A DNA stretch of 64,000 nt from Nitrospinales bacterium (GCA_023248495.1 JAHFEK010000002.1:26733-90732), one strand, 5' to 3'; positions 37,694 through 60,099 are shown, counted from the stretch's first letter. Numbers and translations are program-made. The notes: generated by a model not told the origin, from the letters alone.

Positions 37694-38080
37694 ATGAGTG
37701 AGGACATGTTCGAACGCCTTGTTGCCGAAGCGGTGACGGCTTTGCCCGCTCAAATGCGGAGGGAAATGAAAAATGTGGCGATCATCATTGAACAAAAACC
37801 ACGAAGGAAGAAATTACGGGAAGTCGGCATCAGGCTGCATGAGACGCTGCTGGGCCTGTATGAGGGCATCCCGCTAATCCAACGGGATTCCGGCTATTCG
37901 GGCGTGTTGCCGGATAAAATCACCATCTTCAAAGAACCAATCGAGGAACTTTCCGGAGGAAATCCGGAAAAGCTCGCCGACCTCGTGCGAGAAGTGGTAT
38001 GGCATGAAATCGGCCACCATTTCGGGTTAAGCGATCCCGAGCTTCGTCACCTCGAGAAAGAGCGAAAAAAAAATAAATAG
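37694..38080 (+). CDS. small zincin-like metallopeptidase-family protein
   Basis: 128 aa with C-terminal WHEIGHHFG (HExxH). Confidence 0.65.
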   Translation: MSEDMFERLVAEAVTALPAQMRREMKNVAIIIEQKPRRKKLREVGIRLHETLLGLYEGIPLIQRDSGYSGVLPDKITIFKEPIEELSGGNPEKLADLVREVVWHEIGHHFGLSDPELRHLEKERKKNK

Positions 38081-38094: not shown

Positions 38095-39132
38095 TCAGCC
38101 AATGGGGAATTCCAAAACGACCGTCGTGCCAACGCCGTTTTTGGATTCAATATCGACTGTCCCGTTGTGGCTTTTCATAATGCTGCGCACGATTGAAAGC
38201 CCCAGCCCCGTCCCCTGCCGTTTGGTGGTGAAAAAGGGATCGAAAACGAACTGTAGGTTTTCGCCGCTAATACCGTCGCCGTGATCCAACACTGCTATTC
38301 GGGCGCGACTATTCGGAGATTCGATAAGCGAAGTGGTAATTTCCACCACGCCCCCTTTTTTGGATGCCTGAACGGCGTTCAGGAAGATATTCAAAAGCGC
38401 CTGCTGGATTTTCACTTTATCGATGGAAACCATCGGCATATTAGCCGCGAAGTCCTTGACAACGGATATTTCCGTCTCCAGACATTGCGGCTCCACCATC
38501 GCCAAGGTATCCTCGATGGCCGTGTGGAGGTTCTGCCGCCCCACTTTCAGGGGCATCGGCTTTGCATAATCGATAAACTCGGTGACGATCTTTTCCAGGT
38601 TTGCCACCCCCTCGTTGGCAATCTCGAAATGCGCCTGTTCATCCGGCCGCAGCTTGAGTATTTTTCCGAGAATGGCGAGATTCATCTTGATGGAAGAAAG
38701 CGGATTGCGGATTTCGTGCGCGATGCCGGTCGCCAGCCGCCCCAGCGAGGCAAGCCGTTCCTCATGTTTAAGCTTTTCCTGAAGGGCATGCGTTTCGGTG
38801 ACCTCATGGATAATCCCCATGACGCCGATAATCCTGTTTCGGTGATCGTGAAACGGCGAGGAGCTGACCACAACCCGGTGCAGAACGCCCCGCTTGTCCT
38901 CTATGACCATCTCGAACTTCCGCTTGATGCCAAGCTCCGACGGCTCGCTTATCCGGTTCCCCATATGCTTTACATTCAGAATCTCAAGCATCGGCATTCC
39001 CAGCAACTCGTCCTTATCGTACCCCCATTCGGTGATTTTGCCGTTGATATAGGTGATACGCCCATCCACATCGGCCGCAAGAATTAAATCGCTGGCGTTG
39101 TCCAAAAGACGTTTGTAAAAATGATGGTTCAT
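38095..39132 (-). CDS. cytoplasmic PAS-domain sensor histidine kinase
   Basis: PAS region (LILAADVDGRITYIN...), H-box AHEIRNPLSSI and a HATPase with DHGDGI / GTGLGLSI. No TM segments. The start was moved to MNHHFYK (ATG 39132-39130), overlapping the upstream stop. Confidence 0.85.
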   Translation of the reverse strand: MNHHFYKRLLDNASDLILAADVDGRITYINGKITEWGYDKDELLGMPMLEILNVKHMGNRISEPSELGIKRKFEMVIEDKRGVLHRVVVSSSPFHDHRNRIIGVMGIIHEVTETHALQEKLKHEERLASLGRLATGIAHEIRNPLSSIKMNLAILGKILKLRPDEQAHFEIANEGVANLEKIVTEFIDYAKPMPLKVGRQNLHTAIEDTLAMVEPQCLETEISVVKDFAANMPMVSIDKVKIQQALLNIFLNAVQASKKGGVVEITTSLIESPNSRARIAVLDHGDGISGENLQFVFDPFFTTKRQGTGLGLSIVRSIMKSHNGTVDIESKNGVGTTVVLEFPIG

Positions 39133-42029
39133 CGCGCCGCCGGAAAAAGCATATTTTCGATGAAGTAGGCGATGAATTCCGGATGATTCGCGAGATTCAG
39201 GTATTTCGCTTTGGCGGGAATGGCCTTGGCTTCTATTCTGGCGTTGCGGGAAAGCAACGCGATTCTCGCCCCGACCCCGGCGGAGTTCTTTATGAACCGG
39301 ACTTTCGCCCACGGAAAATCCGGTATCATCCCGATCATTTTCGCGTTTTCGACATTGACCGAGACGCCAAAGGTGCCGGACAAATAAATATTGCGAATAT
39401 CCTCCGGCCGTATTTGCGCCTCTTTTATGAGCAAATCGATAGCGGTACGAATGGCCGATTTTGCTTTCTGTATCTCCTCAATATCTTTGCCTGAAACGGT
39501 GATGGGCTTGAAAATTGCCGTCTTCTGTTTGGCAACCACGATATAGTGTCCGTTCTTGATGCTCGGGTTCTCCGCTTCGCGTAAAAATCTTCCCCGGTGG
39601 CCAATCAGCTTGTGACGGACAAGCTCGGAAATAACATCAATGACGGACGAACCGCACAATCCCAACGGCACGGAACCGCCGATAGTTTTAAAAACGAACG
39701 TGCCGCCTTCCATTTTCATCGAGCTGATAATCCCATTTCTCACCATGTGGCCGTGCGTCAGGCTAGGCCCCTCGAACGCCGGCCCCGCCGCTACGGACGT
39801 GCAGAACAACTTCGACTTGTTCCCCAGGATCACCTCGCCGTTCGTGCCAATATCCACAAACAGGGAAACATCCTCTTTTTTGTGCATCGAGGTGGCAAGC
39901 ACGCCGGAAACCGCATCGGCTCCCACGAATCCACCGATGCTGGGCAATATCTCCACTCTGCATTTCGGATGGACGGAGAAACCGGCGGGAGGTTGAAAGT
40001 CTACCGCAGTCATGGAAATCCATCCCGTTACCGTAGGAATAAAAGGGGATTGGGTGAGCATCTCCGGATTGAGTCCAAGCAGCAGATGGATGATCACCGG
40101 GTTGCCCACAATGACCATATCGTAAATTTGGTTATTGGGCAGCGAGTGGCTTTGGTGGAAAGTGGAGATAAGATAATTTATCCCCTCCATGAGGCTCCGT
40201 TGCAAGGAACCGAGCAAAGAGGGATCATTGATCACGCTGGTGCTTCTGGATATGATGTCTTGCCCCCACCGGTTCTGCGTGTTTTCGGTGGAGCCCACAC
40301 AAACCATTTTCCCATCCCGCAGATCATGCGCATACGCGGAGATCGTGGTGGTTCCAATATCAACCGCGAGGCCGTATATCTTTTCTGAAGCGGTAAAATC
40401 CAAAACCTCTTTCCTGTTCACGTCCAGCACGGCGAACAGTTGCGTCCTCACCTCTCGCGCCATTGATACAAACCGGCCCAAGACATCGGGGTCTATCCGG
40501 AAGTCCGGGTACTTCCGCCGCAACCACTCTTCGCAGGAAAGTTGCGCCGGCCATGACATCAGGGACACTTCCCCCATCGGCTCAATAACGATGGAACGGG
40601 AAAAACCGTATGAGGCGATCTCATCCTCCACAGACGGCTGTATCAACCCCTCCGCGGCGGCCGTGGAACTGGAAAGTATCCTGCTGAAATAAGGGATGTA
40701 AATTTCCATCTCCTCATCCACCCGTATATAACACGCCAAGCGTTCATGCGACGTTCCGTCCCGGCTTTGGAGCTGGATGAACTCGGCCCCTGACGGGGAA
40801 GTCACCGAACCCCGCTTCAGCTTGACCAAACACTTCCCGCACGAACCACTGCGCGTGCAATAGCTGGTCACCTGAACGCCGGATTCATTTATGGCATCCA
40901 GCAGGATGGATCCCGTTTTTACATATATTTTCTTTTTGTGCGGGAAAATTGAAACCGCCCGCGCCCCTTTGAAATGGTTGTTCACTTTTTCAAAATATGT
41001 TTTCTCATCTTCGGCGGCCCGCACGAGCGCTTTGATGTTTTCCGCGGCCGCATACAGGGGAATCTCGCAGCCGCTCCCTAAAATAAAGCGCTCCCGCACC
41101 CGCGCGGCCTTAAACAACCGGCGAGCTTCGGCATAAATCTCATCTGGATTCGATTCGAGAAAAAGAATCGGTTTCACGTTCCCGTTAATGGCGGTAATCC
41201 CCGAATACTCCATCGCCGCTTCAATCGGAACGACATAATCAACCGTGGTAATATCCGCCCCGGCATAGCTTATGATCGCGGTGTTATTCTGAAGCGGGCC
41301 CGCGACGGAATACCATGTGAATTTTTCGGGAAAGGCCTGTTTCAAACGGGCGAAAATGGAACCAACGGATGCTTCCACGAATTGCCGGTAGACTTTTGCC
41401 GGCAGCACCGATGGCGAAGACGTGGGATCCGACATAATTAAAATATCCGCCCCTTCAGCGGCAAGGGCGGACATCCATATGAAGCATAGTTCGGCGCAAT
41501 AATCCAGAATCTCGCGGAAGCGGTCGGGCTCATCCACGATCATATAAAGCATTTTTTCAATATCCATGATCCGCGAGGCTATCGTCATCGGGCCGCTGGC
41601 GCCCGCCACGACCGGAATACGCCCCCCCATTTTCTTTTTCAGGATGCGCACCGCGGCCAGCATTTCAGGCATCCGCCCGCTTTTACGTGGATCCGGAAGG
41701 GAGAGCTTTTTGAAATCCGCCGGATTTTGAAGAACCGGTTCCTTCACAAAGGGATAATTGTCAGCCGGGTAAACGATTCCGCATCCAACCGCTTCCGGCT
41801 CCACGCACAGATCCGTAACGGCGAAGACGGCATCGTGGCCGATCATCTTCTGCGCTTCGATCTGGCATTTGGCCATAACTTCGCCGGAACGAACGTAGTT
41901 GCGCGGCGTCTCGCCGATAAGTGTGGCGGCTACGCCGAACAATTCGGGGATAACGGGAGGATGGTCAGTCTCCAAGAATTTCAATAGGGAAAAAACGCGC
42001 TCGGTGGAATTCATGGTTGCTCTCTGCAT
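39129..42029 (-). CDS. triple fusion: UroD/MtaA-like (MT2-type) domain + 2Fe-2S ferredoxin + RACo-type ASKHA ATPase (reductive activator of corrinoid proteins)
   Basis: Residues 1-~345 have the UroD-family TIM-barrel pattern. The middle has YCTRSGSCGKC...C (2Fe-2S). The C-terminal half has LAVDIGTTTISAY and FVDIGTNGEVILG (ASKHA phosphate-1/2 motifs, as in RACo/DUF4445). Confidence 0.75.
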   Translation of the reverse strand: MQRATMNSTERVFSLLKFLETDHPPVIPELFGVAATLIGETPRNYVRSGEVMAKCQIEAQKMIGHDAVFAVTDLCVEPEAVGCGIVYPADNYPFVKEPVLQNPADFKKLSLPDPRKSGRMPEMLAAVRILKKKMGGRIPVVAGASGPMTIASRIMDIEKMLYMIVDEPDRFREILDYCAELCFIWMSALAAEGADILIMSDPTSSPSVLPAKVYRQFVEASVGSIFARLKQAFPEKFTWYSVAGPLQNNTAIISYAGADITTVDYVVPIEAAMEYSGITAINGNVKPILFLESNPDEIYAEARRLFKAARVRERFILGSGCEIPLYAAAENIKALVRAAEDEKTYFEKVNNHFKGARAVSIFPHKKKIYVKTGSILLDAINESGVQVTSYCTRSGSCGKCLVKLKRGSVTSPSGAEFIQLQSRDGTSHERLACYIRVDEEMEIYIPYFSRILSSSTAAAEGLIQPSVEDEIASYGFSRSIVIEPMGEVSLMSWPAQLSCEEWLRRKYPDFRIDPDVLGRFVSMAREVRTQLFAVLDVNRKEVLDFTASEKIYGLAVDIGTTTISAYAHDLRDGKMVCVGSTENTQNRWGQDIISRSTSVINDPSLLGSLQRSLMEGINYLISTFHQSHSLPNNQIYDMVIVGNPVIIHLLLGLNPEMLTQSPFIPTVTGWISMTAVDFQPPAGFSVHPKCRVEILPSIGGFVGADAVSGVLATSMHKKEDVSLFVDIGTNGEVILGNKSKLFCTSVAAGPAFEGPSLTHGHMVRNGIISSMKMEGGTFVFKTIGGSVPLGLCGSSVIDVISELVRHKLIGHRGRFLREAENPSIKNGHYIVVAKQKTAIFKPITVSGKDIEEIQKAKSAIRTAIDLLIKEAQIRPEDIRNIYLSGTFGVSVNVENAKMIGMIPDFPWAKVRFIKNSAGVGARIALLSRNARIEAKAIPAKAKYLNLANHPEFIAYFIENMLFPAAR

Positions 42030-42037
42030 GCTGTAGA

Positions 42038-42700
42038 TCAGGTTATTTTACAAAGGTAATCAAGTCCGTCAAAAGCGTCGTAGGCAAGGTAATCAAGCCG
42101 CAGCGTCTCCGCCGTGCTTTGCTGAACGGCGGAACCGCCCCCGATAACCTTGATATGGCCCAATCCCTGCGCGGCCAATGCCGGCTTTATCATCTTTATC
42201 TTAGGAAGACACACGCTCATAAGGCTGGAAACCCCCACAAAATCCGCACGCTCTTTGCCCGCGGCGGTGATGAAACCTTCCACCGGAACATCCTTTCCCA
42301 AATTTATCACCCTGAGGTTGTTAAAGCGGCACAGCGTGGCCACCACATGCTTCCCCAAGTCGTGCACGTCCCCCTGGATAGTTCCGATAACGATTGTTTT
42401 TCGTTGGAGCGTTCCGGCGGCACGCTCATGATTCTCGGCAACGCTGTCCAATTGCTGTTTCAGCTTAATCGCCACGCATTCGTCCACCACCTCGGTCATC
42501 GCACGGCAGGCAAGCAATACATCCAGAAGCTGGAAGTTTTCTATCGTGCATTTGTTGCGGAGGATGGCGACCCCTTTGGCGACGGCATCAACTATCTGTT
42601 CGACGGTGTATGATTCAGCAAGAAGCTTTTCAGCGCAAAGCACTGCTTCCCTGTTCTCGCCATGTTGGACTAAAAGAGCAAGATCCATCAGCGGATCCAT
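42038..42700 (-). CDS. corrinoid (cobalamin-binding) protein, MtaC/MtbC-like
   Basis: An N-terminal helical cap plus a Rossmann domain with the DxHxxG motif in GTIQGDVHDLGKHVV and VGVSSLM. Confidence 0.85.
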   Translation of the reverse strand: MDPLMDLALLVQHGENREAVLCAEKLLAESYTVEQIVDAVAKGVAILRNKCTIENFQLLDVLLACRAMTEVVDECVAIKLKQQLDSVAENHERAAGTLQRKTIVIGTIQGDVHDLGKHVVATLCRFNNLRVINLGKDVPVEGFITAAGKERADFVGVSSLMSVCLPKIKMIKPALAAQGLGHIKVIGGGSAVQQSTAETLRLDYLAYDAFDGLDYLCKIT

Positions 42701-42725
42701 TGATACCCCCCTGGCCGCGGCGGCA

Positions 42726-44156
42726 TCAATCGTCCTGGAGATATTGATGTAAGGAGACTATCCCGTATTTTTTTATTTTTCTATCGAGACGGGGGCGCGT
42801 AATTCCGAGTATCCGGCATGTTTCGCCCTTGTGCCATTTCGTGTGATTCAGCGTTTTGGCGATCTGTTCCTTCTCAACCTCATTCAGGGAAACCGGCCGG
42901 TAACCGTTCTTCGGCGTGACCACGGGGGCATCGATATTCACCTCCGGCGTCAGTTCCTCAGCCCCTGTTTTCTCTTTGTGGGCCGCCATGAAGTGTTTGA
43001 GAAATATCCGGTCGCCGCGCGACATAATGACCGTGTGCGTGATGGCATTCTCAAGCTGGCGGACATTGCCCGGCCATTGCCGGTTCATTAGCCAATTGAG
43101 GGCCTCGCGGGAAACATATTTTATGCCGCGATCCGTTTCCAGCCCTTTTTTCGCGATAAAATAAAGCGCCAAAAGCGGAATATCCTCAACCCTCTCCCGC
43201 AGCGGGGGAATATGTATGTTGATCACCTTTATGCGGTAATAGAGGTCGTCCCTGAACTTTCCTTCGCGAACCATCTGCTCAAGATTTTTATTGGTGGCGT
43301 ACAGTATGCGGCAGTTGGCTTTTATTTTCGTCTTCCCCCCCACCTGCTCGAACTCGCGCTCCTGCAATACGCGCAGGATTTTCGCCTGAAGGCCAAAACT
43401 CATTTCGGAAATTTCATCAAGAAATATGGTTCCGTCCCCGGCCAGGGCGAACTTGCCCTCCTTGGCGTTAATGGCGCCGGTAAACGCTCCTTTGACGTGC
43501 CCGAACAACTCTGATTCAAGCAAAGTATCCACGATGGCTGAACAGTTGATGGAAATAAAAGGCGCCGAGGCATTTTTGCTGGAAAGATGGATTGCCTTGG
43601 CAACCAATTCCTTGCCGGTGCCGCTTTCTCCGGTTATAAGAACGGGGGATTTGCTCATGGAGACCATCCCCACCATCTTGAAAACCTCTTTCATAAGCTG
43701 GCCCTTGCCAACGAAGACGGTATCGGTGCTATCCAGCGGCGGTACGGAAACAAGCGATTCGTCGTTCGCCTTGAGGCTGGAGAAAAAATCCTCCGCTTTC
43801 GCCACGGCATTGTCCAGCTCCTGTATGTCTATCGGCTTGTGGATGTACTCGCCAACGCCGTTCTGCACCGCTTTGACGGTTGATTCCATATCCGGATATG
43901 CGGTGATTATGATGGAATAGTAGTTCTTTCCGGTCTTACTGAGCTCCTTGAGTATTTCCACGCCATCCGTATCGGGTAGCCGTAGATCAAGGATAACGAT
44001 AGCTGAATCCAGCTGCTCGAGTTTTTCCAATCCCTCTTTGGCGAAGTTCGCGGTGATGACCTGCATGCCCTGAGATTCAAAATGCAATTGAAGGGTTTTG
44101 CGGATCGCCTTGTCATCGTCGATGATAACTATCGGTTGAGGAGACACCCCGCCCAT
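42726..44156 (-). CDS. sigma-54-dependent response regulator (REC + AAA+ + Fis-type HTH)
   Basis: REC (IVIIDDD...ILDLRLPD), GESGTGKE Walker A, the GAFTGA sigma-54 contact loop and a C-terminal HTH. ATG at 44156 has GGAG 8 nt upstream. The ORF-track GTG at 44192 is less likely. Confidence 0.9.
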   Translation of the reverse strand: MGGVSPQPIVIIDDDKAIRKTLQLHFESQGMQVITANFAKEGLEKLEQLDSAIVILDLRLPDTDGVEILKELSKTGKNYYSIIITAYPDMESTVKAVQNGVGEYIHKPIDIQELDNAVAKAEDFFSSLKANDESLVSVPPLDSTDTVFVGKGQLMKEVFKMVGMVSMSKSPVLITGESGTGKELVAKAIHLSSKNASAPFISINCSAIVDTLLESELFGHVKGAFTGAINAKEGKFALAGDGTIFLDEISEMSFGLQAKILRVLQEREFEQVGGKTKIKANCRILYATNKNLEQMVREGKFRDDLYYRIKVINIHIPPLRERVEDIPLLALYFIAKKGLETDRGIKYVSREALNWLMNRQWPGNVRQLENAITHTVIMSRGDRIFLKHFMAAHKEKTGAEELTPEVNIDAPVVTPKNGYRPVSLNEVEKEQIAKTLNHTKWHKGETCRILGITRPRLDRKIKKYGIVSLHQYLQDD

Positions 44157-44322: not shown

Positions 44323-44439
44323 TTACCTAGTAAAAACATGCCAGACAATATACAGCGTTACCACCATGTTCGCAAACACGCCAAAATGAATCATCCAATC
44401 CAACATGGTGAAGTTCTTAAGAAAAGACCGCATTCCCAT
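44323..44439 (-). CDS. possible 38-aa single-TM small protein (below ORF-track cutoff)
   Basis: Hand translation gives MGMRSFLKNFTMLDWMIHFGVFANMVVTLYIVWHVFTR. GAAGGGG lies 8 nt upstream of the ATG. It sits in an AT-rich spacer and is unverified. Confidence 0.25.
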   Translation of the reverse strand: MGMRSFLKNFTMLDWMIHFGVFANMVVTLYIVWHVFTR

Positions 44440-44580
44440 TTTCAATACCCCTTCATAAAAGTCCGATATTATAATGTTTTGTTCAAATTCAAATTGTATA
44501 CAATTATATCATAGAATCGTTCCTCGTATTATCTGTAATGATGGCGAGGAAGTGCCGACCTGATGATAGGAATTATTCAT

Positions 44581-44613
44581 AAAAAAAAGGGCGGTGAGTG
44601 ATGCTCACCGCCC
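44581..44613 (-). terminator. rho-independent terminator ending the cytochrome/bd-like operon
   Basis: Reverse strand reads GGGCGGTGAG-catca-CTCACCGCCC followed by T8, 58 nt after the stop at 44671. Confidence 0.85.
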
Positions 44614-44670
44614 CGTAAAGCCACCGCCTTACAGCGATAACCCTTAGTACCTTTAAATAAGGCTAGGTCC

Positions 44671-45054
44671 TTATTTTGCGGCGCCCGTGCACTTGCACAT
44701 TTTGCGAAGGTGGGCAACGATGTCCTTAATTTCCGCAGCAGTCAAATTGTGTTTCCAAGCCGGCATCTGGGTGGATTTGCCGACCGCCGAACCGCCTTCA
44801 GTAATGGCAAGAGCGACGTTGGCATCGGAAAGCTCGCCCATCGCCTTTGCATCAGAGTGGTTCCTAGGGGCAACCGCCAGATACGGTGCGTTGATCCCTT
44901 TGCCCGTACCGGCGGTGCCGTGGCACTGAACGCAGTACAAGCTATAGTTATCAGCGGCGGTTTCCGCCGAAGCCGAACCAACCATGCCGGCCGCCAAGAA
45001 GAGTGCCGCCGCGAACATCGCCGCGGAGAACTTCGAAATTACTATCGTTTTCAT
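44671..45054 (-). CDS. monoheme class-I c-type cytochrome
   Basis: Signal peptide, CVQCHG and a distal Met region STQMPAW. Confidence 0.85.
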   Translation of the reverse strand: MKTIVISKFSAAMFAAALFLAAGMVGSASAETAADNYSLYCVQCHGTAGTGKGINAPYLAVAPRNHSDAKAMGELSDANVALAITEGGSAVGKSTQMPAWKHNLTAAEIKDIVAHLRKMCKCTGAAK

Positions 45055-45068
45055 CTATGTCCCCCTCC

Positions 45069-45731
45069 TTATTTCAACGACGCGATGTAGTTCACAACAA
45101 GCTGCATGGACGCGTCATCAAGATCGCGCTTGCCCATCCATACCTTCGGATCCCAGTACTGCGGATCTTGCACGAAGGAGTAAACCCAATCCGGGTTCAA
45201 CCGTTTGCCGATTCCTTCCCACGTCGGGCAGGACAAGCCGCCGTTGCCTTCGATGGAGTGGCAACCGTTGCAGGCTTCGGTTTTGATGATAAGCATCTTG
45301 GCCTTTGCCTTGGAGAATTCGCCGATCTTCGCGACACCGGTCTTCATCTTGGCGTCCTTGAGGGTCATAAGGTAATCGGCGGCCGCGGCGGCGTCACCGG
45401 CGCTCAGCTTGGAAGCGCATTTCGCCGGAGCAGCCACGGTATCGGTATCGCCAGTGGTCTTGATGTTGTTGGAGTACACCGTGCCCGCGGGGCGGATGAC
45501 GGTCGGGTTCTGCAGGAATCCCACCAGCCAATCTTTGTTGAACTTGCTGCCCGCGTAGAACAGATCGGGCGCTTTCCGCGCCTTCACTTCCGCTATGGTC
45601 TTCACCGCCGGACCCGCCAATTTGTGGCAGCTGCCACACGGTTTAACGATGGCCGCCCCATCCGCCGCAAACGCGGACGGAACCGCCAGCAGGAGCGCTA
45701 ATGCAAATACGGTAATGCCTCTTTTTATCAT
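45069..45731 (-). CDS. diheme c-type cytochrome
   Basis: Signal peptide, CGSCHK and CNGCHS. Confidence 0.85.
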   Translation of the reverse strand: MIKRGITVFALALLLAVPSAFAADGAAIVKPCGSCHKLAGPAVKTIAEVKARKAPDLFYAGSKFNKDWLVGFLQNPTVIRPAGTVYSNNIKTTGDTDTVAAPAKCASKLSAGDAAAAADYLMTLKDAKMKTGVAKIGEFSKAKAKMLIIKTEACNGCHSIEGNGGLSCPTWEGIGKRLNPDWVYSFVQDPQYWDPKVWMGKRDLDDASMQLVVNYIASLK

Positions 45732-45765
45732 GTCCCCTATCCTTTCTGGTTAAAAAATCAACCTG

Positions 45766-47322
45766 TTACTTTCTATTTTTCTTAAGATACGCCGCTGCCG
45801 CCAACTGGCCGCCCGCAAGCAATACCAACACCAACAACGGAACCAAATACACTTCTTTGCCGGTAGGCGGTTGCAGCAACAGCCACGCCCAAGAGGTCAT
45901 GGTGTGCTTGGAACCCTTTTCACCGTTGGAGCCATCCCAGTTAGCGAACGCAATCGGGATAAACCGGCCCACTTCAAATTGGGTGTCCTTGTCCTTGTTG
46001 GCGGTCACAAGCTTCCGCTTCATCATAACTTTCCAGGTACCATCTTTGTACGTACCGGAAGAGGTAAAGCCGGCGGCAGCCGCATCACCCGGCGTTCGTT
46101 TGCCCGAACCCGAGTAGATCATCGTCATGCCAGCGGCCGGAGCGGTGGTCGTGCCAGAATTCCACGCCATCATGGCAACCGGATGGGCCGCATCGCCGTG
46201 GCCGAAATAAGGCTTTTCCGAACCGCTGGGAATAACAACCGGCGTCTGGATCGCAACCTGGTCGGGGGAAATTGTATCCCACGCAATCAGTTCCGCTGTC
46301 GGATCGCCTGGGATACTCTTGGTGCGGTCATCCCACTCGAGCAAGAACGCGATTTCCTTGTCGTTATACAGCGCCTTCACCTTGATGAGATCGTTTGCCG
46401 GGGTAAAGAAGCGCTCCGGCTGGATAATCTGGGGAGCCAGGAAATACGCGGTGCTTGCCGTTTCGTTCCAGACGGCGTCGTTTTCGTCCTTCGGCATTAC
46501 GTCGCGCTGAAAACCTTTCACGACGGTCTGACCGTCAACCGTTTTGCTGGTCGGCTCGGCGAGGGACATGACGTAATTGACCACGTGCCAGCGGTCTTCC
46601 ACCGACAGCTTGCCGCTAGAGGTGGTATCAGCCGCAAATGACGGCATCGGCGTGTTCGGAATGCCGTTTGACACGCGGGCGAAAATGTCTTCGGCAGTAT
46701 ACCCGCCGCGGAAAGTCCACGGTTTGGTCAGATTTCTCGGCCAGACACGGATACCGCTGTCTTCTTTGAGCTTTTTCGTCAGGTCGCCTTTGCCGACCTG
46801 GCCATGACACTCAAAGCACTTTGCGGTCTGGAACGCCTTCTTGCCCAATTCGATGCTTTCCGCCGAGCTCTTTATCTTCTTGCTCACGTCGATCTGGGGC
46901 GGATTCGCGGTTTTGCCAAACATGTCGGTAAGCGACTTGACGTAGGCAACAACGTCCCACCGATCCTGCTCGGTCAGGATGTCATTCCAGGCCGGCATAC
47001 CGGTACCCGGCATACCGTTGGTGATGACCTTAAACAGGTCCTCATCGCGCGGAATTTCTACTTTCGGGTCGCTGGATTTGTACTTGTACATACCAAGCGT
47101 AAAGTCACGCGGCGGAGGAATCAGGAAAGTGGTGGCAGGCCCGTCGGCCGCCCCTTTTTTACCATGACACCACCAGCAGCGCTTCTGGTAGATCGCTTCG
47201 CCTTTTTTTGCGTCGCCGGCGGCAAATGCCTCGGGCGCGGCGAAAATGGTGACTACGGCGAAGAGCGTAGCCATCGCCAAGCCAGTTTTTCTTACGTTCT
47301 TAAATAAAGACATGGTAGTCAT
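45766..47322 (-). CDS. diheme cytochrome c fused to an EB_dh/DOMON-like (NxrC/EbdC gamma-subunit-like) heme-binding domain
   Basis: CWWCHG and CFECHG in the N-terminal half. The C-terminal ...VKALYNDKEIAFLLEWDDRT...DQVAIQ...IAFANWDGSNGEKGSKHTMTSW fits the EB_dh pattern. C-terminal TM anchor. Confidence 0.6.
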   Translation of the reverse strand: MTTMSLFKNVRKTGLAMATLFAVVTIFAAPEAFAAGDAKKGEAIYQKRCWWCHGKKGAADGPATTFLIPPPRDFTLGMYKYKSSDPKVEIPRDEDLFKVITNGMPGTGMPAWNDILTEQDRWDVVAYVKSLTDMFGKTANPPQIDVSKKIKSSAESIELGKKAFQTAKCFECHGQVGKGDLTKKLKEDSGIRVWPRNLTKPWTFRGGYTAEDIFARVSNGIPNTPMPSFAADTTSSGKLSVEDRWHVVNYVMSLAEPTSKTVDGQTVVKGFQRDVMPKDENDAVWNETASTAYFLAPQIIQPERFFTPANDLIKVKALYNDKEIAFLLEWDDRTKSIPGDPTAELIAWDTISPDQVAIQTPVVIPSGSEKPYFGHGDAAHPVAMMAWNSGTTTAPAAGMTMIYSGSGKRTPGDAAAAGFTSSGTYKDGTWKVMMKRKLVTANKDKDTQFEVGRFIPIAFANWDGSNGEKGSKHTMTSWAWLLLQPPTGKEVYLVPLLVLVLLAGGQLAAAAYLKKNRK

Positions 47323-47329
47323 TTCTCCC

Positions 47330-48109
47330 CTATTTCTTCTCTGCGACAGTCGCGGTTACGCGCGGCTTATTCCCGCTCTGTTCGTAGATGAACATTACCG
47401 CTTTCCATGCTTCCTCCTCGGAAATCATGGTGTGCCACACCGGCATGGCGGTCGCCCACGGCGCACCTTCGCCCGGCAGACCGGGACCACCCGTGCCAAT
47501 GCGCCAGAACACGAAGGACTCGGTCAACATCGCAATGGTGCCAACGTCAACAAAGTTCGCGGGAATCGGGTTGAACGCCTGATAGAAGTGGCCCTTACCG
47601 TCCTGCTTGTCGCCATGGCAATAGAAGCAGTTCTTGTAATAGACAATTCCGCCCTCTTCCACGTTCTTGGCGAAATTCGCCTTGTCTTCGCGTAAAGGAT
47701 TCTTGAGCGTCTGTAATTCAAACGTCTTACCCCACATGTTAGCCGAGGAAGGCGGCGCCGGATGAACCGACCGCAATTCGACGGGCGCTTCAAAAGACGG
47801 CTTCACATATTGGTAAGAAACCCAGCAGCCAAGGAGACTCACAGCGGAGATGGCGCACAGGCGAAGTGTCGCCTTGGACGGATTACTGTACAGATCCACA
47901 ATCGGCCCAACAAGGCCATTGTACCCTTCATCGCTAAACGTGCTGGCCAGAAATGCGCCCGCGATGATGAAGAAGAGGTACATTTTCATAACGGCCGTCG
48001 GAACCACCGGCCATGTGCCGGGATGGGACAACGAACCCAAAAATGGAACGCCTATCTTTATGAGGAGATAGGCTACAAAAACGCCAATTATCGGTTTTAA
48101 AAAATGCAT
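47330..48109 (-). CDS. membrane-bound (3 TM) monoheme cytochrome c
   Basis: N-terminal hydrophobic helices plus CFYCHG. Confidence 0.8.
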   Translation of the reverse strand: MHFLKPIIGVFVAYLLIKIGVPFLGSLSHPGTWPVVPTAVMKMYLFFIIAGAFLASTFSDEGYNGLVGPIVDLYSNPSKATLRLCAISAVSLLGCWVSYQYVKPSFEAPVELRSVHPAPPSSANMWGKTFELQTLKNPLREDKANFAKNVEEGGIVYYKNCFYCHGDKQDGKGHFYQAFNPIPANFVDVGTIAMLTESFVFWRIGTGGPGLPGEGAPWATAMPVWHTMISEEEAWKAVMFIYEQSGNKPRVTATVAEKK

Positions 48110-48127
48110 CTTTCTACCCTCGTCTCC

Positions 48128-48994
48128 CTATTTCTTCCCAAGCAACGCGTTGACAATCAGGTTCATCTCTGACATCGTGATCTTCTCGGCAAAATCACTG
48201 GGCATCATGTCGGGCTCAAATCCCTTAACCACATACGCATTCGGAGTCGAAATCGACTCGATGATGTAAGCTTGTCCGCTCATACCGGGCTTCCTGGAAC
48301 CAGCCTCTTTGGCCAACTTTGTCAGGTTGGGTCCCATATCTCCACCTTCGGCGATACCCGGAACCACATGGCATGTAACGCAACCATACTTGTTGAAGGC
48401 CTCTTCGGCGGTTGTTGCCGGTTTGGGCGCGGCTGCGGCTTCAGCGCCACCTGCCGGTGCCGCCGGTGCAGCGCCAGTCGGGAGCGGAACAGTGACTTCC
48501 ACACCGCCCGATTTCTGCAAATAAGAAATAACGGCGTTGATCTCAACATCGGAAAGGCCGATGGCCCCCTTGTTGATCTGCGGCATCGGACTTACGGTAT
48601 CGTTCGTACCCGGTTTGCCGAAGCCAGCGACAACGTAGGTCGACGGTTCCATCATTGATTCGCGGATGTACTCTTCGCCGGTCTTTGCTTTGCCCTTGTA
48701 GCGAGGGTCTTTTATCCGCTCGGAAGACCTTGGGCCAACCGCGTCAAGAACCGGTGCGCGACCGCCGACCGGGCTGTGACAAAGTGTGCAGGTTCCCTTG
48801 CCGTGGAATATCTTATCGCCCATCGCGACAAACTGGTCTTTGGTCATCGCGCCGGTGATCTTTTCTTCAACCGGAGGCGCTTCCGGAATAACCAGCGGTA
48901 TCCCAAATTTAGCATAGCCCGCGAAGGCCAACATTATCAACAAGCCGTAAACCAGGATTTTACCCAGTTCTGAGTTACCTTTATTTCCTTCCAT
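48128..48994 (-). CDS. membrane-anchored diheme cytochrome c
   Basis: One N-terminal TM, CTLCHS and CVTCHV, with an A/P-rich linker between the domains. Confidence 0.85.
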   Translation of the reverse strand: MEGNKGNSELGKILVYGLLIMLAFAGYAKFGIPLVIPEAPPVEEKITGAMTKDQFVAMGDKIFHGKGTCTLCHSPVGGRAPVLDAVGPRSSERIKDPRYKGKAKTGEEYIRESMMEPSTYVVAGFGKPGTNDTVSPMPQINKGAIGLSDVEINAVISYLQKSGGVEVTVPLPTGAAPAAPAGGAEAAAAPKPATTAEEAFNKYGCVTCHVVPGIAEGGDMGPNLTKLAKEAGSRKPGMSGQAYIIESISTPNAYVVKGFEPDMMPSDFAEKITMSEMNLIVNALLGKK

Positions 48995-49003
48995 TTTTTC
49001 CTC

Positions 49004-50932
49004 TTAATGCTCCCCTGAAGAACCTTTTTTGGCTGCCAACATCGGCATCCAGAACATGAAAAGGACAAGGGCGATGAATACACAGACGATTACTGTAACC
49101 ACAGCCGCGGCGTAGGGCAACGTCGGCGTGAATGCGCCGGGCGAATTATCCCTGAACACCGTGTAAACGTGCCAGTGCTGGCGAATGGCCGACCGGACGT
49201 ACCCCATAAGACCCATCAACCAGGTAAAGCCGATGGTCAATGTGAAAAGGGCATACTGCGAACGAACCGGCATATTTCCCCATTTGGTTTCGCCCAGTTC
49301 TTCACTCTTATTGAAGATTTTGCCATCCATTATGAAGGAGGCAACGATAACAATGAGGGTGGTGGTAACCTGTGGAACGGAAAGACCGATACGGACGCTG
49401 GCTGGCAGATAGTAACTGTAAATACCAAGCGCCAGAATGTTGCACAAACCGGCAACGTAAAGACCAATCTGGACGGAAGTGCCGTTTTGGGCCCAAAATC
49501 CGTCACCGAGCGCCTTCTTATTGCTGCGGTTGTAAATCTGGAAGCTGAGGAACGTTAGCACGATAAGGAAGTTAACCGCCGTGTTCTTCGCGGCCATAAC
49601 CCCAAGTTTACCGAGCAACGGATGGTGAGCGCCGCCGATCTGGGTCAGTTCCGTCGAGCTCATAACCAGCGTGTGCGGGGTAAGCCATGCGAGGAACATC
49701 GTCACGATAACAATAGCGATCGGCTTGATCATAAAGCTGTACCGGTGCGAACCGTTCGAACGCGCCAAGCAGCACCAGAGGTAGTAGTTGGCGGAAAGGA
49801 ATATCGCGCCGATAAGCACCGCCTGAAGAATGAACAACCACGCGAAGGCGCCGCCCATGAGGGTGATGCCCATCTGCTGCGAATAGTCGTAAATTTCCTT
49901 GGTGAGCCAGTAACCGGCGAACGGCAACGGAAGAAGACCGATGATCGCGATGAAGAACGAGGTGTACCCCATCCAGTCATAGTGGGCCTTTTCCTGCGGC
50001 GTTTTCGCCATGAGGAACTTGTATCCCGCATACGCCGCGGTCAGCGAACCGCCATAGGCGATGTTCGCGACAAAGCGGTGGATGTTGATCGGGTTCCAAA
50101 GGTGTCCGTTGATGGCCGCCCAGACATTACCCTGGAATACGCCAGAATCATCCAATCCCGAAGGGGCCATCATGAACGATGCCCACGAGTTGGAAACCAT
50201 CATAAGGAACACGCCGGCCAAGTTTAGGCCCAAGCCCAAACCGATGTGGACGATCTTGGAGTTCCCATCGGACATCTTGTCCCACCCGTAGTAGTAGGTG
50301 TACAAAAAGAAGCTTTCCGCGAAAAACGCGAGAGCGTAAAAAATCATCACCTTGCCGAAAATACCCGTCATGTAAGTCATAAATTGGGGATAGAAAACAA
50401 CCAAAGCGATGGAAAGGAGACCTCCGAAGCTCGCGGCAAGCGAGAACCCGGTCATGGCCACCTTCATGAACTCGTGCGCCATATCATCATACCGCTTGTC
50501 CTTGGTGACAACGCCGGTGATCTCGATGAGCCACACGAAGATCGGAACCGCGAGAACGAACGCACCAAAGAAAAGGTGCAACTGGGCGATGAACCAGACG
50601 GTTAAGCGGCTGTTAAAGCCTTTGACGACCGGGTAGTCTTTCTCTTCCAGTTTCGGAGGCGGTTGAGGAGCCCATTCCGCGGGACCCTTCTTCTCCTCTT
50701 TTTTAGCTTCAGCCGCAGGGGCTGCCGCCGGGGCCGCTTCGTTAGCCCAGGCTTTTTGGGCCAAGACCGCATTGGCGGCGGACTTCAGCACCGGCTGGCT
50801 GATGTCCATATAATCGAACGAAAGCGCCGGGATTGCAAGCAGCAGGGCCAAGGCCGCGCCAAACCTGTAAACCCCAGTGCTACATTGAGATAACACTTTC
50901 TTGACATGTGAAAACATAAACCTAACCTTCAT
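49004..50932 (-). CDS. cytochrome bd subunit I (CydA)-like 'bd-like' oxidase membrane subunit
   Basis: Segments align by eye to E. coli CydA. QLHLFFGAFVLAVPIF...IEITG matches MYHFLFVPLTLG...METVY. FFAESFFLYTYYYGWDK...LNLAGVFLMMVSNSWASFMMAP matches FFLESTFVGLFFFGWDR...SNLSALWILVANGWMQNP. RSAIRQHWHVY matches EYGRQPWAI. Extra C-terminal TMs are present. The preferred start is ATG 50932 (AGGGGA upstream); the ORF track extends to 51055. Confidence 0.8.
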   Translation of the reverse strand: MKVRFMFSHVKKVLSQCSTGVYRFGAALALLLAIPALSFDYMDISQPVLKSAANAVLAQKAWANEAAPAAAPAAEAKKEEKKGPAEWAPQPPPKLEEKDYPVVKGFNSRLTVWFIAQLHLFFGAFVLAVPIFVWLIEITGVVTKDKRYDDMAHEFMKVAMTGFSLAASFGGLLSIALVVFYPQFMTYMTGIFGKVMIFYALAFFAESFFLYTYYYGWDKMSDGNSKIVHIGLGLGLNLAGVFLMMVSNSWASFMMAPSGLDDSGVFQGNVWAAINGHLWNPINIHRFVANIAYGGSLTAAYAGYKFLMAKTPQEKAHYDWMGYTSFFIAIIGLLPLPFAGYWLTKEIYDYSQQMGITLMGGAFAWLFILQAVLIGAIFLSANYYLWCCLARSNGSHRYSFMIKPIAIVIVTMFLAWLTPHTLVMSSTELTQIGGAHHPLLGKLGVMAAKNTAVNFLIVLTFLSFQIYNRSNKKALGDGFWAQNGTSVQIGLYVAGLCNILALGIYSYYLPASVRIGLSVPQVTTTLIVIVASFIMDGKIFNKSEELGETKWGNMPVRSQYALFTLTIGFTWLMGLMGYVRSAIRQHWHVYTVFRDNSPGAFTPTLPYAAAVVTVIVCVFIALVLFMFWMPMLAAKKGSSGEH

Positions 50933-51519
50933 TTTGTCCCCTAAGCCGTTAATATTCTTATTCCCCTTTAGGAAAGAGCGCCAAGCCCTGATAAGCCTGC
51001 AGAAAATAATCCACTGAAAAGAAAATAACCGCAAAAACCGCAAAGGCAGCAACAAACGTAAAAATCTTTTGGTTCAAACCATCCCCCTTTTTCAAGTTAG
51101 TACCAACTAGGTTGTTAAGAGCGCTTTCCCAATCAAAAAAACGCCGTTAAATAAATACTCTGCTAATTATTCGAAGTGTGCAAGCTGGGTTAAATCGAAA
51201 GCAACCTCCCACTTTTTCCTAACCATCCACAGCAATACTTTTGACATTCCCCCCCGGGAATGCCCCCACCTTGTTTGTGCAACACCGCTTTTGCAATTTA
51301 AAACGTGCCTTACTAAATACAAGAGCCATGCCGCAATTCGTGCAATATTAGCATAAGACCACCAAAAGCCAAGAAATATTTTCATCACTATAAAAATATT
51401 CGGCCAATGGGCGGTTTTACCCGGAAAGGTTAGTGGTTTCATGGGGCCAGCTTCCTAAATAACATGGCGAAAAAGCTTTGAAAAACCGAACCGCCTGTAC
51501 ACCACGTTAACATTGGTTG

Positions 51520-51668: not shown

Positions 51669-52340
51669 ATGACTAACCAAAGCCCCAAACAAATGCTCCT
51701 GGAGCAATTTGCCCGTATTGGAAAAGCGATTTCAAGCCCCACGCGGATCGAGATGCTGGAGTTCCTCGCACAAAACGAAAAAAACGTCGAGACTCTCGCG
51801 GCTATGACCAAGTCCACCGTTGCCAACACATCGCAACACTTGCAACAGCTCCGGCAGGTGGGCCTCGTCACCTCGCGCAAGGACGGGCAGCGGGTGTATT
51901 ACCGCCTTGCGGACGAAACGGCGGTTGAACTCATGATGCTCGTGCGGAAAATCGCGGAACGCAACATCGCGGAAGTCGAGCAATTGATAAACCTCTACCT
52001 CAAATCCAAAGACGCCTTTGAAGCGGTGCCGGCGGATGAACTGCTCGAACGGGTGAAAGCCGGCACGGTCATTATACTCGACGTGCGGCCGCCGGACGAA
52101 TATGCGGCGGGACACGTTCCCGGAGCCTTGAATGTGCCGTTCAAGGAACTTGAAAAGCACGTGCACAAACTGAATGCAAAGACGGAAGTAATCGCCTACT
52201 GCCGCGGACCGTACTGCCTGTTGGCGTACGACACGGTGGAAAAATTGCGCGAAAAAAACATCAAGGCCCATCGGTTGGAGGACGGATTCCCGGAATGGAA
52301 ACGCCGGGGGTTCCCGGTCGAAAAAGGGGAAAAAAAGTAA
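51669..52340 (+). CDS. ArsR/SmtB-family transcriptional regulator fused to a rhodanese domain
   Basis: wHTH ...RIEMLEFLAQNEKNVETLAAMTKSTVANTSQHLQQLRQVGLVTSRKDGQRVYYRL. Rhodanese ...ILDVRPPDEYAAGHVPGALNVP...AYCRGPYC (active-site Cys loop). Confidence 0.85.
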   Translation: MTNQSPKQMLLEQFARIGKAISSPTRIEMLEFLAQNEKNVETLAAMTKSTVANTSQHLQQLRQVGLVTSRKDGQRVYYRLADETAVELMMLVRKIAERNIAEVEQLINLYLKSKDAFEAVPADELLERVKAGTVIILDVRPPDEYAAGHVPGALNVPFKELEKHVHKLNAKTEVIAYCRGPYCLLAYDTVEKLREKNIKAHRLEDGFPEWKRRGFPVEKGEKK

Positions 52341-56394: not shown

Positions 56395-57497
56395 CTGAAT
56401 ATCTTCTCAGTGGTCTTTATTTTAACCCGCATCTTTTTTGATTCGTCAAGCAACGCTGCGGTGTCCAGCATGCCCAGCTTCCCGGTACCGGACTCGGTGA
56501 ACCAGACGCGCCCCTTAGTATCGATCGCCAGTGAATTTGGCTTCGATTCCCCTTCGGAAAGATCGAACATTTGCATCGTGGCGGTTTTTGTGTTGAAACG
56601 GAGCAAGCGGTTATCGGTATGTTGAACCATCCAAAGGTTATCCGACTGGTCCATCGCTATTTCACTGGTTCCCTTGTTTTTCGGCATATCGAAAGTCTCT
56701 TGCTTCGCGGTTTTAGGATCGAAACGCACAATCATGTTATCGACCATTTGAAGATACCAAATCATCCCCTTGGAATCGAACACCGTGCCGAGAGGAGACT
56801 TCATGGCGGGCGATATGCCCCATTCGCGAAACCTCTTCTTTTCGGGATCAAACATGGCGATCTTGTTGCCGCTGCGTTCGACAAACCACATATTACCCGA
56901 GCGATCCTCCGTCAAATCAAAACTGCTGCTGTTCGGGGTCGGGATAATGAACTTTTCGAATTTTTCGGTGCCGGGCCGGAAACGGATCAGCATGTCATTG
57001 TTCCAACCTAGCACCCAAATATCGCCGGTGCGCGCGGCATAAACGATGATCGGATCGACATTCTTGAAAGGAATAACGTATTCCTTGAATGTTTTTGTTT
57101 TTGGATCGAACTTGGATAACACGTTAACGTCCTGCTCAACCAACCATAGAATGCCGTTCTTGTCCGCGGTCATATCCATGGCGTGGCTTTTACCCGAGAG
57201 AATGGGATATTCCTTCATCACGCCGGATTTAGAATCAAAACTTACCAGCGCGTTGGCATTGAACTCGATAAACCAGACGGTGGCGTCCCCTGTGGTGGTA
57301 ACAGCGGTGGGATAGCTCTCCTTCTGCGGAATGTCGTACTCCGTTATCAACTCGCCGCCACGAGCCGCCGGAACAATGGCAACCGATACCATCAGGGCCA
57401 ACACGGTTGCCCTGAAGGAAGTCCCGCTAAAAAAACCGGCAATCCGTGAAAGAGGCCCACCTTGAAAAGCGCGGTTGGGAAATGTCGAAAACAACAT
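56391..57497 (-). CDS. secreted 7-bladed beta-propeller, Vgb (virginiamycin B lyase)/lactonase-like repeats
   Basis: Seven repeats of the form D..G.(I/L/M)W(F/L/V).E...N.(L/I)..FDP.T..F.E(Y/F).(I/L)P. No Cys-rich or heme motifs. Confidence 0.65.
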   Translation of the reverse strand: MLFSTFPNRAFQGGPLSRIAGFFSGTSFRATVLALMVSVAIVPAARGGELITEYDIPQKESYPTAVTTTGDATVWFIEFNANALVSFDSKSGVMKEYPILSGKSHAMDMTADKNGILWLVEQDVNVLSKFDPKTKTFKEYVIPFKNVDPIIVYAARTGDIWVLGWNNDMLIRFRPGTEKFEKFIIPTPNSSSFDLTEDRSGNMWFVERSGNKIAMFDPEKKRFREWGISPAMKSPLGTVFDSKGMIWYLQMVDNMIVRFDPKTAKQETFDMPKNKGTSEIAMDQSDNLWMVQHTDNRLLRFNTKTATMQMFDLSEGESKPNSLAIDTKGRVWFTESGTGKLGMLDTAALLDESKKMRVKIKTTEKIFR

Positions 57498-57517
57498 GCG
57501 AAGCTCTCTGTCCGGAT

Positions 57518-59441: not shown

Positions 59442-59466
59442 GGCTGGACTCCCCCTATTTGCCGAA

Positions 59467-60099
59467 TCATACTTTTTTGGCCAATCCAAGCCGTCTCGTC
59501 AAAATGATATGAACGAAAAGAACGGCGAAAAACAGTATCGGCAACATTATGATATGCACCGCGAAATTGCGACCAAGCGTGAATGAACTCAAAATGAGAT
59601 CTTTAACCGATCCGCCAACAAGCGGAATCAACTCAAGCCAGTCGGCCCAGATAATCAGTTCCCAATAACTTCTCCAGTCCCACGGCGCGATAATGCCGGA
59701 GATCAGAAAAAGAAAGAAAATCAGCCCCAAGACAAGCCCGGTGAACCAATTTAATTCGCGCGGATTTTTATACGCTTTCCTTCCCATGGTGTGAAACACA
59801 TGCAACATGACAAAAAGAGCGCCAAACGTAGCACTCCACCGGTGAAGGCTTCGCATGATGGCTCCCAGATTCGACAACTGACACATATCCCGAATGCTCT
59901 GGTGCGCAAGATTCGGTTCCGGAACATAGTACATGACCATGTAAAAGCCGGTTAAAAACTGAATACCGACACAGCCGATAGTCAGGCCGCTGAAGAAGTG
60001 CCATATGGTGGCGCTTTCAGAAAGCTCAAATGCAATATGATTGTTATAAAATTGAACAATCCCAAGGCGCTCGTCAATCCATCCAATAATTTTTTTCAT
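59467..60099 (-). CDS. cytochrome b6-type N-terminal subunit (PetB-like)
   Basis: Four TM. The bis-His pairs are LHRWSATFGALFVMLH (H-x13-H) and VHIIMLPILFFAVLFVH (H-x14-H, b6-type spacing). Confidence 0.85.
   Translation of the reverse strand: MKKIIGWIDERLGIVQFYNNHIAFELSESATIWHFFSGLTIGCVGIQFLTGFYMVMYYVPEPNLAHQSIRDMCQLSNLGAIMRSLHRWSATFGALFVMLHVFHTMGRKAYKNPRELNWFTGLVLGLIFFLFLISGIIAPWDWRSYWELIIWADWLELIPLVGGSVKDLILSSFTLGRNFAVHIIMLPILFFAVLFVHIILTRRLGLAKKV

Follow-up and report, generated by a model that had tools for sequence, protein, structure and literature searches.

We examined a 64,000-nucleotide stretch of the genome of a Nitrospinales bacterium (GCA_023248495.1 JAHFEK010000002.1:26733-90732; the window, below, is this whole stretch), whose minus strand carries an operon in which a corrinoid protein and its putative partner enzyme are encoded between the two halves of a two-component system. 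In order, the operon encodes a small membrane peptide, a sigma-54 response regulator, a corrinoid protein, a fusion of a UroD-like domain to a RACo-type reductive activase, and a PAS kinase. The response regulator gene (42726-44156; Response_reg, Sigma54_activat, AAA_lid_14, and HTH_8 domains in Pfam) is followed after 25 nt (42701-42725) by the gene for the corrinoid protein (42038-42700; 220 amino acids, with a B12-binding domain, PF02310, scoring 69.5 bits) and, after a further 8 nt (42030-42037), by that for the fusion (39129-42029; 966 amino acids, domains likewise from Pfam). The fusion gene overlaps that of the kinase (38095-39132; PAS, HisKA, and HATPase_c in Pfam, soluble and with no membrane segment) by 4 nt, ATGA, at 39129-39132. 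Through this overlap the kinase is predicted to be translationally coupled to the fusion, and in relatives the fusion stop and the kinase start show the same overlap or a gap of at most 12 nt. An earlier note on this DNA had described these four minus-strand genes with their motifs, gaps, and overlap, and our coordinates, translations, and Pfam matches agree with it throughout, but its count of four genes is incomplete: a conserved fifth gene, encoding 38 amino acids (44323-44439, minus strand; MGMRSFLKNFTMLDWMIHFGVFANMVVTLYIVWHVFTR), had been overlooked. The product of this open reading frame (ORF) is predicted to be a single hydrophobic helix, an RBS-like GAAGGGG lies ahead of its ATG, and tblastn finds the pattern F[TS]xLDWxIHFG with a hydrophobic stretch directly 5' of the response regulator gene, on the same strand, in at least 13 related loci. 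This ORF probably opens the operon, and the peptide, which has no family assignment, may be a membrane partner of the system. A strong intrinsic terminator (44588-44614, minus strand; an 11-bp stem and then a T run) separates the cytochrome operon upstream from the regulator operon; in the AT-rich stretch between the terminator and the small ORF lies a perfect 10-bp palindrome, TTGTATACAA (44491-44500, minus strand), which may be an operator. The content of this operon and its recurrence in other genomes suggest that the trio of corrinoid protein, UroD-like domain, and, where present, RACo is a B12-based sensor controlling respiratory genes.

The signaling proteins at either end of the trio are of familiar kinds. 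By its domains, the response regulator is an NtrC-type sigma-54-dependent regulator, with a receiver (REC) domain, an AAA+ domain in whose translation GAFTGA is present, and a Fis-type helix-turn-helix (HTH); the domains that define NtrC-type systems are all present, including the H-box DHp and HATPase_c domains of the kinase. The best NCBIfam matches of the two proteins are AtoC, NtrC, and AtoS, at scores far under the equivalog cut-offs. The PAS domain of the kinase, with a mean column identity of 68%, has no invariant histidine or cysteine among relatives, which makes it unlikely that the kinase senses alone by heme, an Fe-S cluster, or a LOV-type cysteine. Many of the related loci (numbered here with the prefix L) hold a second, membrane kinase gene between a cytochrome bd-like oxidase gene and the response regulator gene (L010, L016, L018, L021, L022, L024, and L027); it is absent from the window. 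Both of the membrane kinases scanned by Pfam (L004/L024 and L005/L016) carry a dCache_1 sensor domain, and this extra kinase could feed the same response regulator.

The corrinoid protein carries the motifs GDVHDLG (DxHxxG), SSLM, and GGG and is made of a helical cap and a Rossmann-type B12-binding domain. Its best relatives in the Protein Data Bank are 1y80, 4jgi, MttC, MtaC, and MetH, and it scores 29 bits against a CarH model with a cut-off of 400; judged by these matches it is a methyltransferase-type corrinoid protein and not one of the CarH type. Tryptophan is absent from its first 95 residues, and it hence lacks the CarH cap motif holding adenosylcobalamin, Wx9EH. Mercury methylation of the HgcAB type, as in Nitrospina, was set aside on the architecture of the protein, the corrinoid protein being soluble and MtaC-type, not HgcA-type. 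These features bear on whether the corrinoid protein might be a cobalamin photoreceptor, similar to CarH, AerR, or the photoglobin-B12 proteins, or else a sensor of B12 availability, with the fusion serving only to regenerate the chromophore. Methyl- and adenosylcobalamin are photolabile, which counts for a photoreceptor. B12-binding domains are also proven light sensors with predicted two-component partners (PMC8717448). Against this, the protein scores as methyltransferase-type, neither a photoglobin nor any other chromophore domain occurs, and the metagenomes that hold the relatives are from hydrothermal vents, groundwater, peat, and sediment; because of the protein type, the missing cap motif, and these dark-habitat sources, light is unlikely to be the signal. 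Sensing of B12 availability alone is also unlikely because it would not need RACo, a Co(I)-generating ATPase, and an Rfam scan of the whole window gave no match, hence no cobalamin riboswitch there. We regard either form of this explanation as extremely improbable. The precedents to which the earlier note appeals, CarH and AerR/PpaA, offer only a loose parallel for a methyltransferase-type protein that has no cap tryptophan and comes from largely dark habitats.

The fusion joins two proteins that are each recognizable in full. Pfam places URO-D at residues 9-340, Fer2 at 368-437, Raco_middle at 552-718, and RACo_C_ter at 721-964, the last three each above its cut-off. The RACo part (39129-40964, minus strand) consists of a [2Fe-2S] ferredoxin domain, a linker, a middle domain, and an ASKHA ATPase domain, and the C-terminal 611 amino acids align end to end with the RACo structure 3zyy (E=7e-80, residues 6-608). 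At least 90% of sequences keep the 2Fe-2S cysteines C391, C397, C400, and C433, and D557 in the motif DIGTTT does not vary. An AcsV model scores 371 bits against a cut-off of 800. To judge from its sequence, the RACo part is an intact, full-length ATP-dependent reductive activase. The UroD part (40995-42029, minus strand) is, from Pfam, NCBIfam, and an AlphaFold2 model, an MtaA-like TIM barrel in a distinct subfamily of the URO-D family. Its nearest NCBIfam families are MtaA/CmuA and the methylcobalamin:CoM methyltransferases (TIGR01463 and NF004889); it scores 152 bits against the MtaA/MtbA/CmuA models, under their cut-offs of 235 and 244. The model (pLDDT 91) confirms a UroD-type TIM-barrel fold, with TM-scores of 0.89-0.91 to MtaA (4ay7) and 0.82-0.85 to true UroD. 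On this evidence we classify the UroD-like domain as an MtaA/CmuA-like methyltransferase homologue whose closest relative is MtaA. A true uroporphyrinogen decarboxylase was rejected: the HemE model gives 77 bits where its cut-off is 303, and there is no N-terminal arginine motif; D73 aligns with the aspartate of the UroD 'SDIL' motif, presumably the catalytic Asp86 of human UroD.

The barrel departs from MtaA at the metal site. Where MtaA has its zinc ligands H-x-C, 20 fusion proteins all have WYSVAG (W-x-x-x-x-G), and the unfused proteins of the family discussed below have W[YLMI][SHN][IVT][AT]G; the third zinc cysteine is kept, in GSGC321E (motif GSGCE-x-P), and two of the three ligands are gone. 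As read from this alignment, the thiol-activating zinc site of MtaA is absent from the UroD part. A zinc-free UroD-fold methyltransferase 1 (MT1) has been characterized in CdmB, which merely guides a small substrate to Co(I) (PMC13222342). The statement in the earlier note that no MT1 is present consequently needs rewording: there is no second methyltransferase at the locus, but the UroD part is itself a methyltransferase homologue and UroD-fold MT1s exist. Because the UroD part is already methyltransferase-like, the absent component is better called a second methyltransferase than 'the MT1'.

The UroD-RACo fusion family comprises 62 cluster representatives, mostly from metagenome-assembled genomes (MAGs) labeled Nitrospinota, and a scan of species-representative genomes yielded 24 fusion loci, all in MAGs, with the labels Nitrospinota, 'Nitrospirae', Brocadiaceae, Planctomycetota, and Deltaproteobacteria. 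The order of response regulator, corrinoid protein, fusion, and PAS kinase is found in all Nitrospinota-type loci with enough sequence (about 20), over a range of fusion identity from 87% to 34%. The placement of a corrinoid protein and RACo between response regulator and kinase is thus real and not restricted to this genome; with the four-gene order in about 20 independent loci and its core in more than 100, the arrangement goes far beyond what chance would give. Mean identity to the window over 17 loci is 66-72% for the corrinoid protein, 71% for the kinase DHp domain, 65-69% for the response regulator, 57% for the PAS domain, 56% for the UroD part, and 46-49% for the RACo part, whose middle and C-terminal domains fall to 21-35% in one sub-clade. 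Conservation is highest in the corrinoid protein and the DHp domain, as an interaction hub would be expected to show. In a second clade (L003, L006, L019, L020, and L023), PilJ-HAMP-PAS kinases, hybrid in some cases, come after the corrinoid protein and fusion, and there is no sigma-54 response regulator. Among MAGs of the anammox family Brocadiaceae (L017, L029, and L031), the fusion gene is frameshifted in L029, and the assembly of L017 has a corrinoid protein homologue on a separate contig (L031), where DUF1015 is its neighbor and S-adenosylmethionine-cycle genes lie in the same stretch. After the kinase, L009, L010, L011, L014, L022, L025, L030, and L037 carry a convergent seven-gene cluster encoding Redoxin/AhpC, FGE-sulfatase-like, and CcmH proteins and several proteins without a Pfam match; in the window its place is taken by a Zincin_1 gene (37694-38080) and PNPase.

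The coupling to signaling proteins extends well beyond the fused form. The most distant homologue of the corrinoid protein led to L032, where genes for a corrinoid protein, UroD, DUF1638, RACo, a GAF kinase, and a sigma-54 response regulator are followed by nosZ. The UroD protein there has the same zinc-less signature, and its relatives number at least 305 protein clusters and at least 519 matches in metagenome contigs (sample names include groundwater). Their pattern is corrinoid protein and UroD, with or without DUF1638 and RACo, and then a signaling protein: a GAF kinase with a sigma-54 response regulator, a kinase with a shared unannotated N-terminal domain, a HisKA_2/HWE kinase, or a PAS/GAF-GGDEF cyclase. 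Across 109 non-redundant loci annotated by script, the corrinoid protein gene lies directly 5' of UroD in 81 of the 82 loci with room for it, and a HisKA kinase was called directly 3' of UroD or RACo in 54 of 69. The 15 apparent exceptions include two ORF-calling artifacts in which the kinase is actually present, eight other signaling proteins in Pfam (PAS/GAF-GGDEF, HisKA_2/HWE, PAS-HATPase, and multi-PAS proteins cut by contig ends), and one stand-alone copy of the N-terminal domain common to most unfused-class signaling proteins, so that a signaling protein is directly downstream in 65 of the 69 loci (54 + 2 + 8 + 1). The module is directly upstream of at least five unrelated signaling architectures, cyclic di-GMP (c-di-GMP) cyclases included. 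Gene fusions tie the parts to one another: corrinoid protein to UroD in L116 (8001-9689; followed by RACo and a hybrid kinase), UroD to RACo in the window, and a [2Fe-2S] Fer2 domain to a kinase in L113 (3880-5397).

Two features of the unfused-class signaling proteins stand out. The shared N-terminal domain, of about 150 amino acids within the first ~165 residues, has no Pfam match, shows the motifs AQY..L..QQD, SGFL, FLP, and LLN.YLA.AGL, and occurs in kinases and GGDEF cyclases alike (L045, L048, L056, L080, L098, L108, and about 40 others); it is a candidate reader of the corrinoid protein. Homology between it and the PAS domain of the window was ruled out (hhalign probability 0.4%). The GAF kinases paired with sigma-54 response regulators (L032-L035, L053, L092, L096, and L099) have recurrent cysteines, C..C...C.NR...SH.CIP, which hint that they bind a metal or an Fe-S cluster; RACo is missing from several of these loci.

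If the module were an ordinary corrinoid methyl-transfer system, catabolic or detoxifying, with its own two-component regulator, the UroD domain would demethylate a substrate, loading the methyl group on the corrinoid protein, the acceptor enzyme completing the pathway would be encoded elsewhere, and the kinase would sense the substrate; the earlier note had offered a methyltransferase operon carrying its own regulators as its alternative. All three catalytic parts look intact, UroD-family enzymes act as MT1 or as methyltransferase 2 (MT2), MtsA-type enzymes doing both (PMC10418091; PMC13222342), and some catabolic corrinoid clusters carry two-component genes, among them the mec cassette (10.1101/2021.08.30.458270). 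A complete set, however, would be MT1, corrinoid protein, MT2, and activase, and of these the corrinoid protein, the activase, and a single UroD-family domain are present, while a second methyltransferase was not found over the ~5-10 kb around the module that were covered. There is no further UroD or corrinoid protein copy in about 110 loci, no pterin-binding, MttB, or MtaB-type gene in 11 Pfam-annotated loci, and neither a methyltransferase family nor a recurrent transporter among the 25 commonest Pfam families of 289 flanking ORFs. The proposal of an MT1 gene near the module in relatives, by which the earlier note would have recognized a demethylase operon, thus found no counterpart: more than 100 related loci have no extra methyltransferase gene there. 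The MtaA thiol-activating zinc site is missing as well, a GGDEF cyclase partner regulates no operon transcriptionally in any simple way, and the sigma-54 promoters of relatives face respiratory operons, not methyltransferase genes. The hosts of the fused class, moreover, are Nitrospinota-type lineages, which are not known to be methylotrophs. The diversity of partners and the pattern of conservation disfavor the methyl-transfer explanation, and we consider it unlikely.

What the module might control is suggested by its neighbors. Upstream of the regulator operon lies its probable target, an operon (44671-51055, minus strand) in which Pfam identifies a cytochrome bd-like oxidase subunit (49004-51055, minus strand) and five c-type cytochromes, among them a protein with two cytochrome c domains and EB_dh, which is NxrC/ethylbenzene dehydrogenase gamma-like (45766-47322, minus strand). 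A bd-like gene adjoins the module in 16 loci, and in six of these a GG-N10-GC element with a score of at least 18 lies 243-305 nt upstream of the bd-like ORF, with a seventh (L012) scoring 17 (binomial P ~1e-11, computed for 7/14 against a background of 7e-5 per position); these and all promoter calls here are consensus matches. The window has two degenerate sigma-54-like elements on the minus strand, as far from the bd-like gene as the canonical sites are in relatives: AGGCACGTTTTAAATTGCA (51310-51292), with a spacer 3 nt too long, and CGGCATGGCTCTTGTA (51333-51318), with GT for GC at -12, a form shared by L010 (CGGCATGTTTTTTGTA). Both are non-canonical, and so no sigma-54 promoter is claimed here. 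Two further sigma-54-like sites were not used, the one at 60117-60132 because it is only ~18 nt from the next start codon, that of a cytochrome b, and the one at 46141-46156 because it is inside a gene. No conserved enhancer, sought as gapped inverted repeats and shared 8-mers, was found upstream of 15 bd-like genes. Divergent from the bd-like oxidase operon is a gene for an ArsR-type HTH-rhodanese fusion (51669-52340, plus strand), and the region 53515-62554 (minus strand) encodes a cytochrome b (59467-60099), two Vgb_lyase-like beta-propellers, a 600-amino-acid propeller weakly similar to nos_propeller and cytochrome d1, and a 959-amino-acid spermine-synthase-like/TPR protein.

In relatives, respiratory neighbors with sigma-54 promoters are found in both classes. 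In the GAF-kinase subgroup a near-consensus promoter stands directly after the response regulator gene in six of seven loci, facing nosZ in L032 and L099, an operon of Fer4/Pyr_redox, Rieske, cytochrome b, and multiheme cytochrome genes in L034, and an operon of a receiver domain, cytochrome c7, and alternative complex III (ACIII) in L035, L092, and L096. Because these promoters face respiratory operons, the sigma-54-linked members appear to control respiratory modules. The same neighborhoods could instead reflect a maturation or repair enzyme for respiratory complexes, one that performs, for example, corrinoid-dependent methylation or demethylation of a cofactor, with kinase and response regulator adjacent for regulatory convenience. 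The flanks of the fused class, dominated by thiol-redox proteins, c-type cytochromes, FGE-sulfatase-like proteins, bd-like oxidase, and CcmH, would suit such an enzyme, the fused class lying between the bd-like oxidase/cytochrome c operon and a conserved cytochrome-biogenesis cluster of thiol-redox, CcmH, and FGE-sulfatase-like genes. Yet the module is strictly adjacent to signaling proteins while the complex varies (bd-like oxidase, nosZ, ACIII, Rieske/cytochrome b, or none), respiratory neighbors are lacking altogether in most unfused loci, and the ATGA coupling is to the kinase. A maturation role therefore seems very unlikely.

We think it probable that the locus encodes an NtrC-type two-component system with the cobalamin-loaded corrinoid protein as its sensory input. 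The diversity of the downstream signaling architectures, together with a corrinoid protein and DHp domain that are the most conserved parts, points to a sensory input rather than to a catabolic operon with its own regulators. The earlier note had proposed a signaling device in which the PAS kinase reads the state of the cobalt: synteny and signaling partners favor the device, while the readout by the PAS domain is a step that we infer. In such a sensor, reduction of Co(II) to Co(I) would fall to the RACo half, drawing on ATP and its [2Fe-2S] cluster, and the MtaA-like barrel would dock the corrinoid protein and control which small molecule gets to the cobalt. Co(I) would go back to Co(II) on meeting an oxidant and become alkyl-Co(III) on meeting an alkyl donor, and, because there is no second methyltransferase to pass a methyl group on, the cobalt and conformational state of the corrinoid protein would be the product of the system. 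The cytoplasmic kinase would read that state, most simply by direct contact through its PAS domain, and set the phosphorylation of the sigma-54 activator, which would in turn control neighboring respiratory genes, in this lineage presumably the cytochrome bd-like oxidase/cytochrome c operon.

Several findings weigh against a corrinoid sensor of respiratory genes. In the window, no canonical sigma-54 promoter lies upstream of either the bd-like operon or the response regulator operon, and in the largest unfused subgroup the neighbors are mostly further signaling proteins, with no respiratory theme. The reader domains differ, PAS here and an unrelated N-terminal domain in most unfused loci, so no one docking domain is conserved throughout. 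Of all the parts, RACo is conserved least, and it is absent at the locus in L030, L035, L053, L092, L096, and L099; in L030, a fused-class locus, a UroD-only gene (1546-2583) precedes the kinase and RACo has been lost. The suggestion in the earlier note that an ATP-dependent activator resets the device accordingly suits the full RACo of the window, but cannot be a universal step since RACo is missing in some relatives. Two Brocadiaceae loci have the fusion without corrinoid protein or kinase neighbors. Finally, all comparative loci are MAGs or metagenome contigs, with most gene calls made by an ORF and phmmer script.

The two classes of signal that a corrinoid sensor might detect each find some agreement in the data. 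An alkyl donor would agree with the methyltransferase-like barrel being present everywhere. An oxidant (O2, N2O, or NO) fits the respiratory outputs and the oxidation of Co(I) by N2O: Co(I) corrinoids in MetH and methyltransferases are oxidized to Co(II) by N2O or O2 and need re-reduction (PMC13059711; PMC10960958). A more specific form of the oxidant proposal, which we offer tentatively and hold to be doubtful, is a cob(I)alamin sensor of small oxidant gases, in which the barrel would admit N2O, O2, or NO to RACo-reduced Co(I) and the resulting Co(II) would switch the kinase or cyclase. Were it true, relatives would possess a dedicated N2O sensor switching on nosZ and electron-transport modules via sigma-54, the same device would control the bd-like oxidase operon in this Nitrospinota-type genome, and B12 would have a new sensory use in which damage chemistry is the signal and the reset is driven by ATP.

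A sensor of the kind favored here would be a new input to bacterial signaling, a methyltransferase-type corrinoid protein held reactive by an ATP-driven activase and reporting to kinases and c-di-GMP cyclases. It would not be a peculiarity of one genome, the fused form being typical of Nitrospinota-type nitrite oxidizers, and it may decide how respiration is rewired, given terminal oxidases, N2O reductase, ACIII, and Rieske/cytochrome b in neighboring operons. This is relevant to marine nitrite oxidation when oxygen is low and to the trigger for N2O reduction, and the module provides a concrete set of proteins for biochemical tests. The components each come from known families, and accessory-dependent kinases and B12 sensors are already known; even so, there is a substantial chance that the module represents a new sensory principle. 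We found no published account in which a corrinoid protein, a methyltransferase, and an activase together form the input to two-component or c-di-GMP signaling. The nearest published cases are the mlp clusters (PMC10418091) and the predicted photoglobin-B12 light-sensing bundles (PMC8717448). The mlp clusters described by Kountz and Balskus contain several Mlp proteins and methyltransferases and no kinases, and the terms 'histidine kinase', 'two-component', and 'sensor' do not occur in the text of that paper (PMC10418091).

Set beside known systems, the module combines traits that are otherwise found apart. With the corrinoid methyltransferase systems MtaABC/RamA, OdmABCD, CdmBCA, and the type 1 mlp clusters it shares the type of corrinoid protein (DxHxxG, cap and Rossmann domain), the MtaA-like barrel, and a full RACo/RamA-type activase, and the barrel of CdmB is, like this one, without a zinc site (PMC13222342). 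It differs in having one methyltransferase-like component, no MT2 or other acceptor enzyme at the loci, and a UroD domain that is fused to RACo and set within a two-component operon. In MetH and the corrinoid methyltransferases the oxidation of Co(I) is damage, whereas here, we infer, it might be a signal. CarH, AerR, PpaA, and the photoglobin-B12 bundles (PMC8717448) resemble it in using a B12-binding domain as a sensory carrier linked to transcriptional or two-component control, but they are light sensors that work by photolysis of the upper ligand and have neither a methyltransferase barrel nor a reductive activase; a stand-alone methyltransferase-type corrinoid protein serviced by Co(I)-generating machinery points instead to redox or alkylation chemistry in the dark. 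Like LuxP-LuxQ, TorT-TorS, and the 'trigger enzyme' sensors, the module would have a separate protein, encoded next to the kinase, carry a state that the kinase reads; LuxP- and TorT-type accessories, however, are periplasmic binding proteins, and the accessory proposed here would work in the cytoplasm, carry a cofactor, and have its own ATP-driven redox maintenance. With NtrB/NtrC and AtoS/AtoC, finally, it has in common the response regulator of REC, AAA+ (GAFTGA), and HTH_8 domains and the PAS-HisKA-HATPase kinase, but its response regulator and kinase genes are split by the corrinoid genes and its predicted targets are respiratory.

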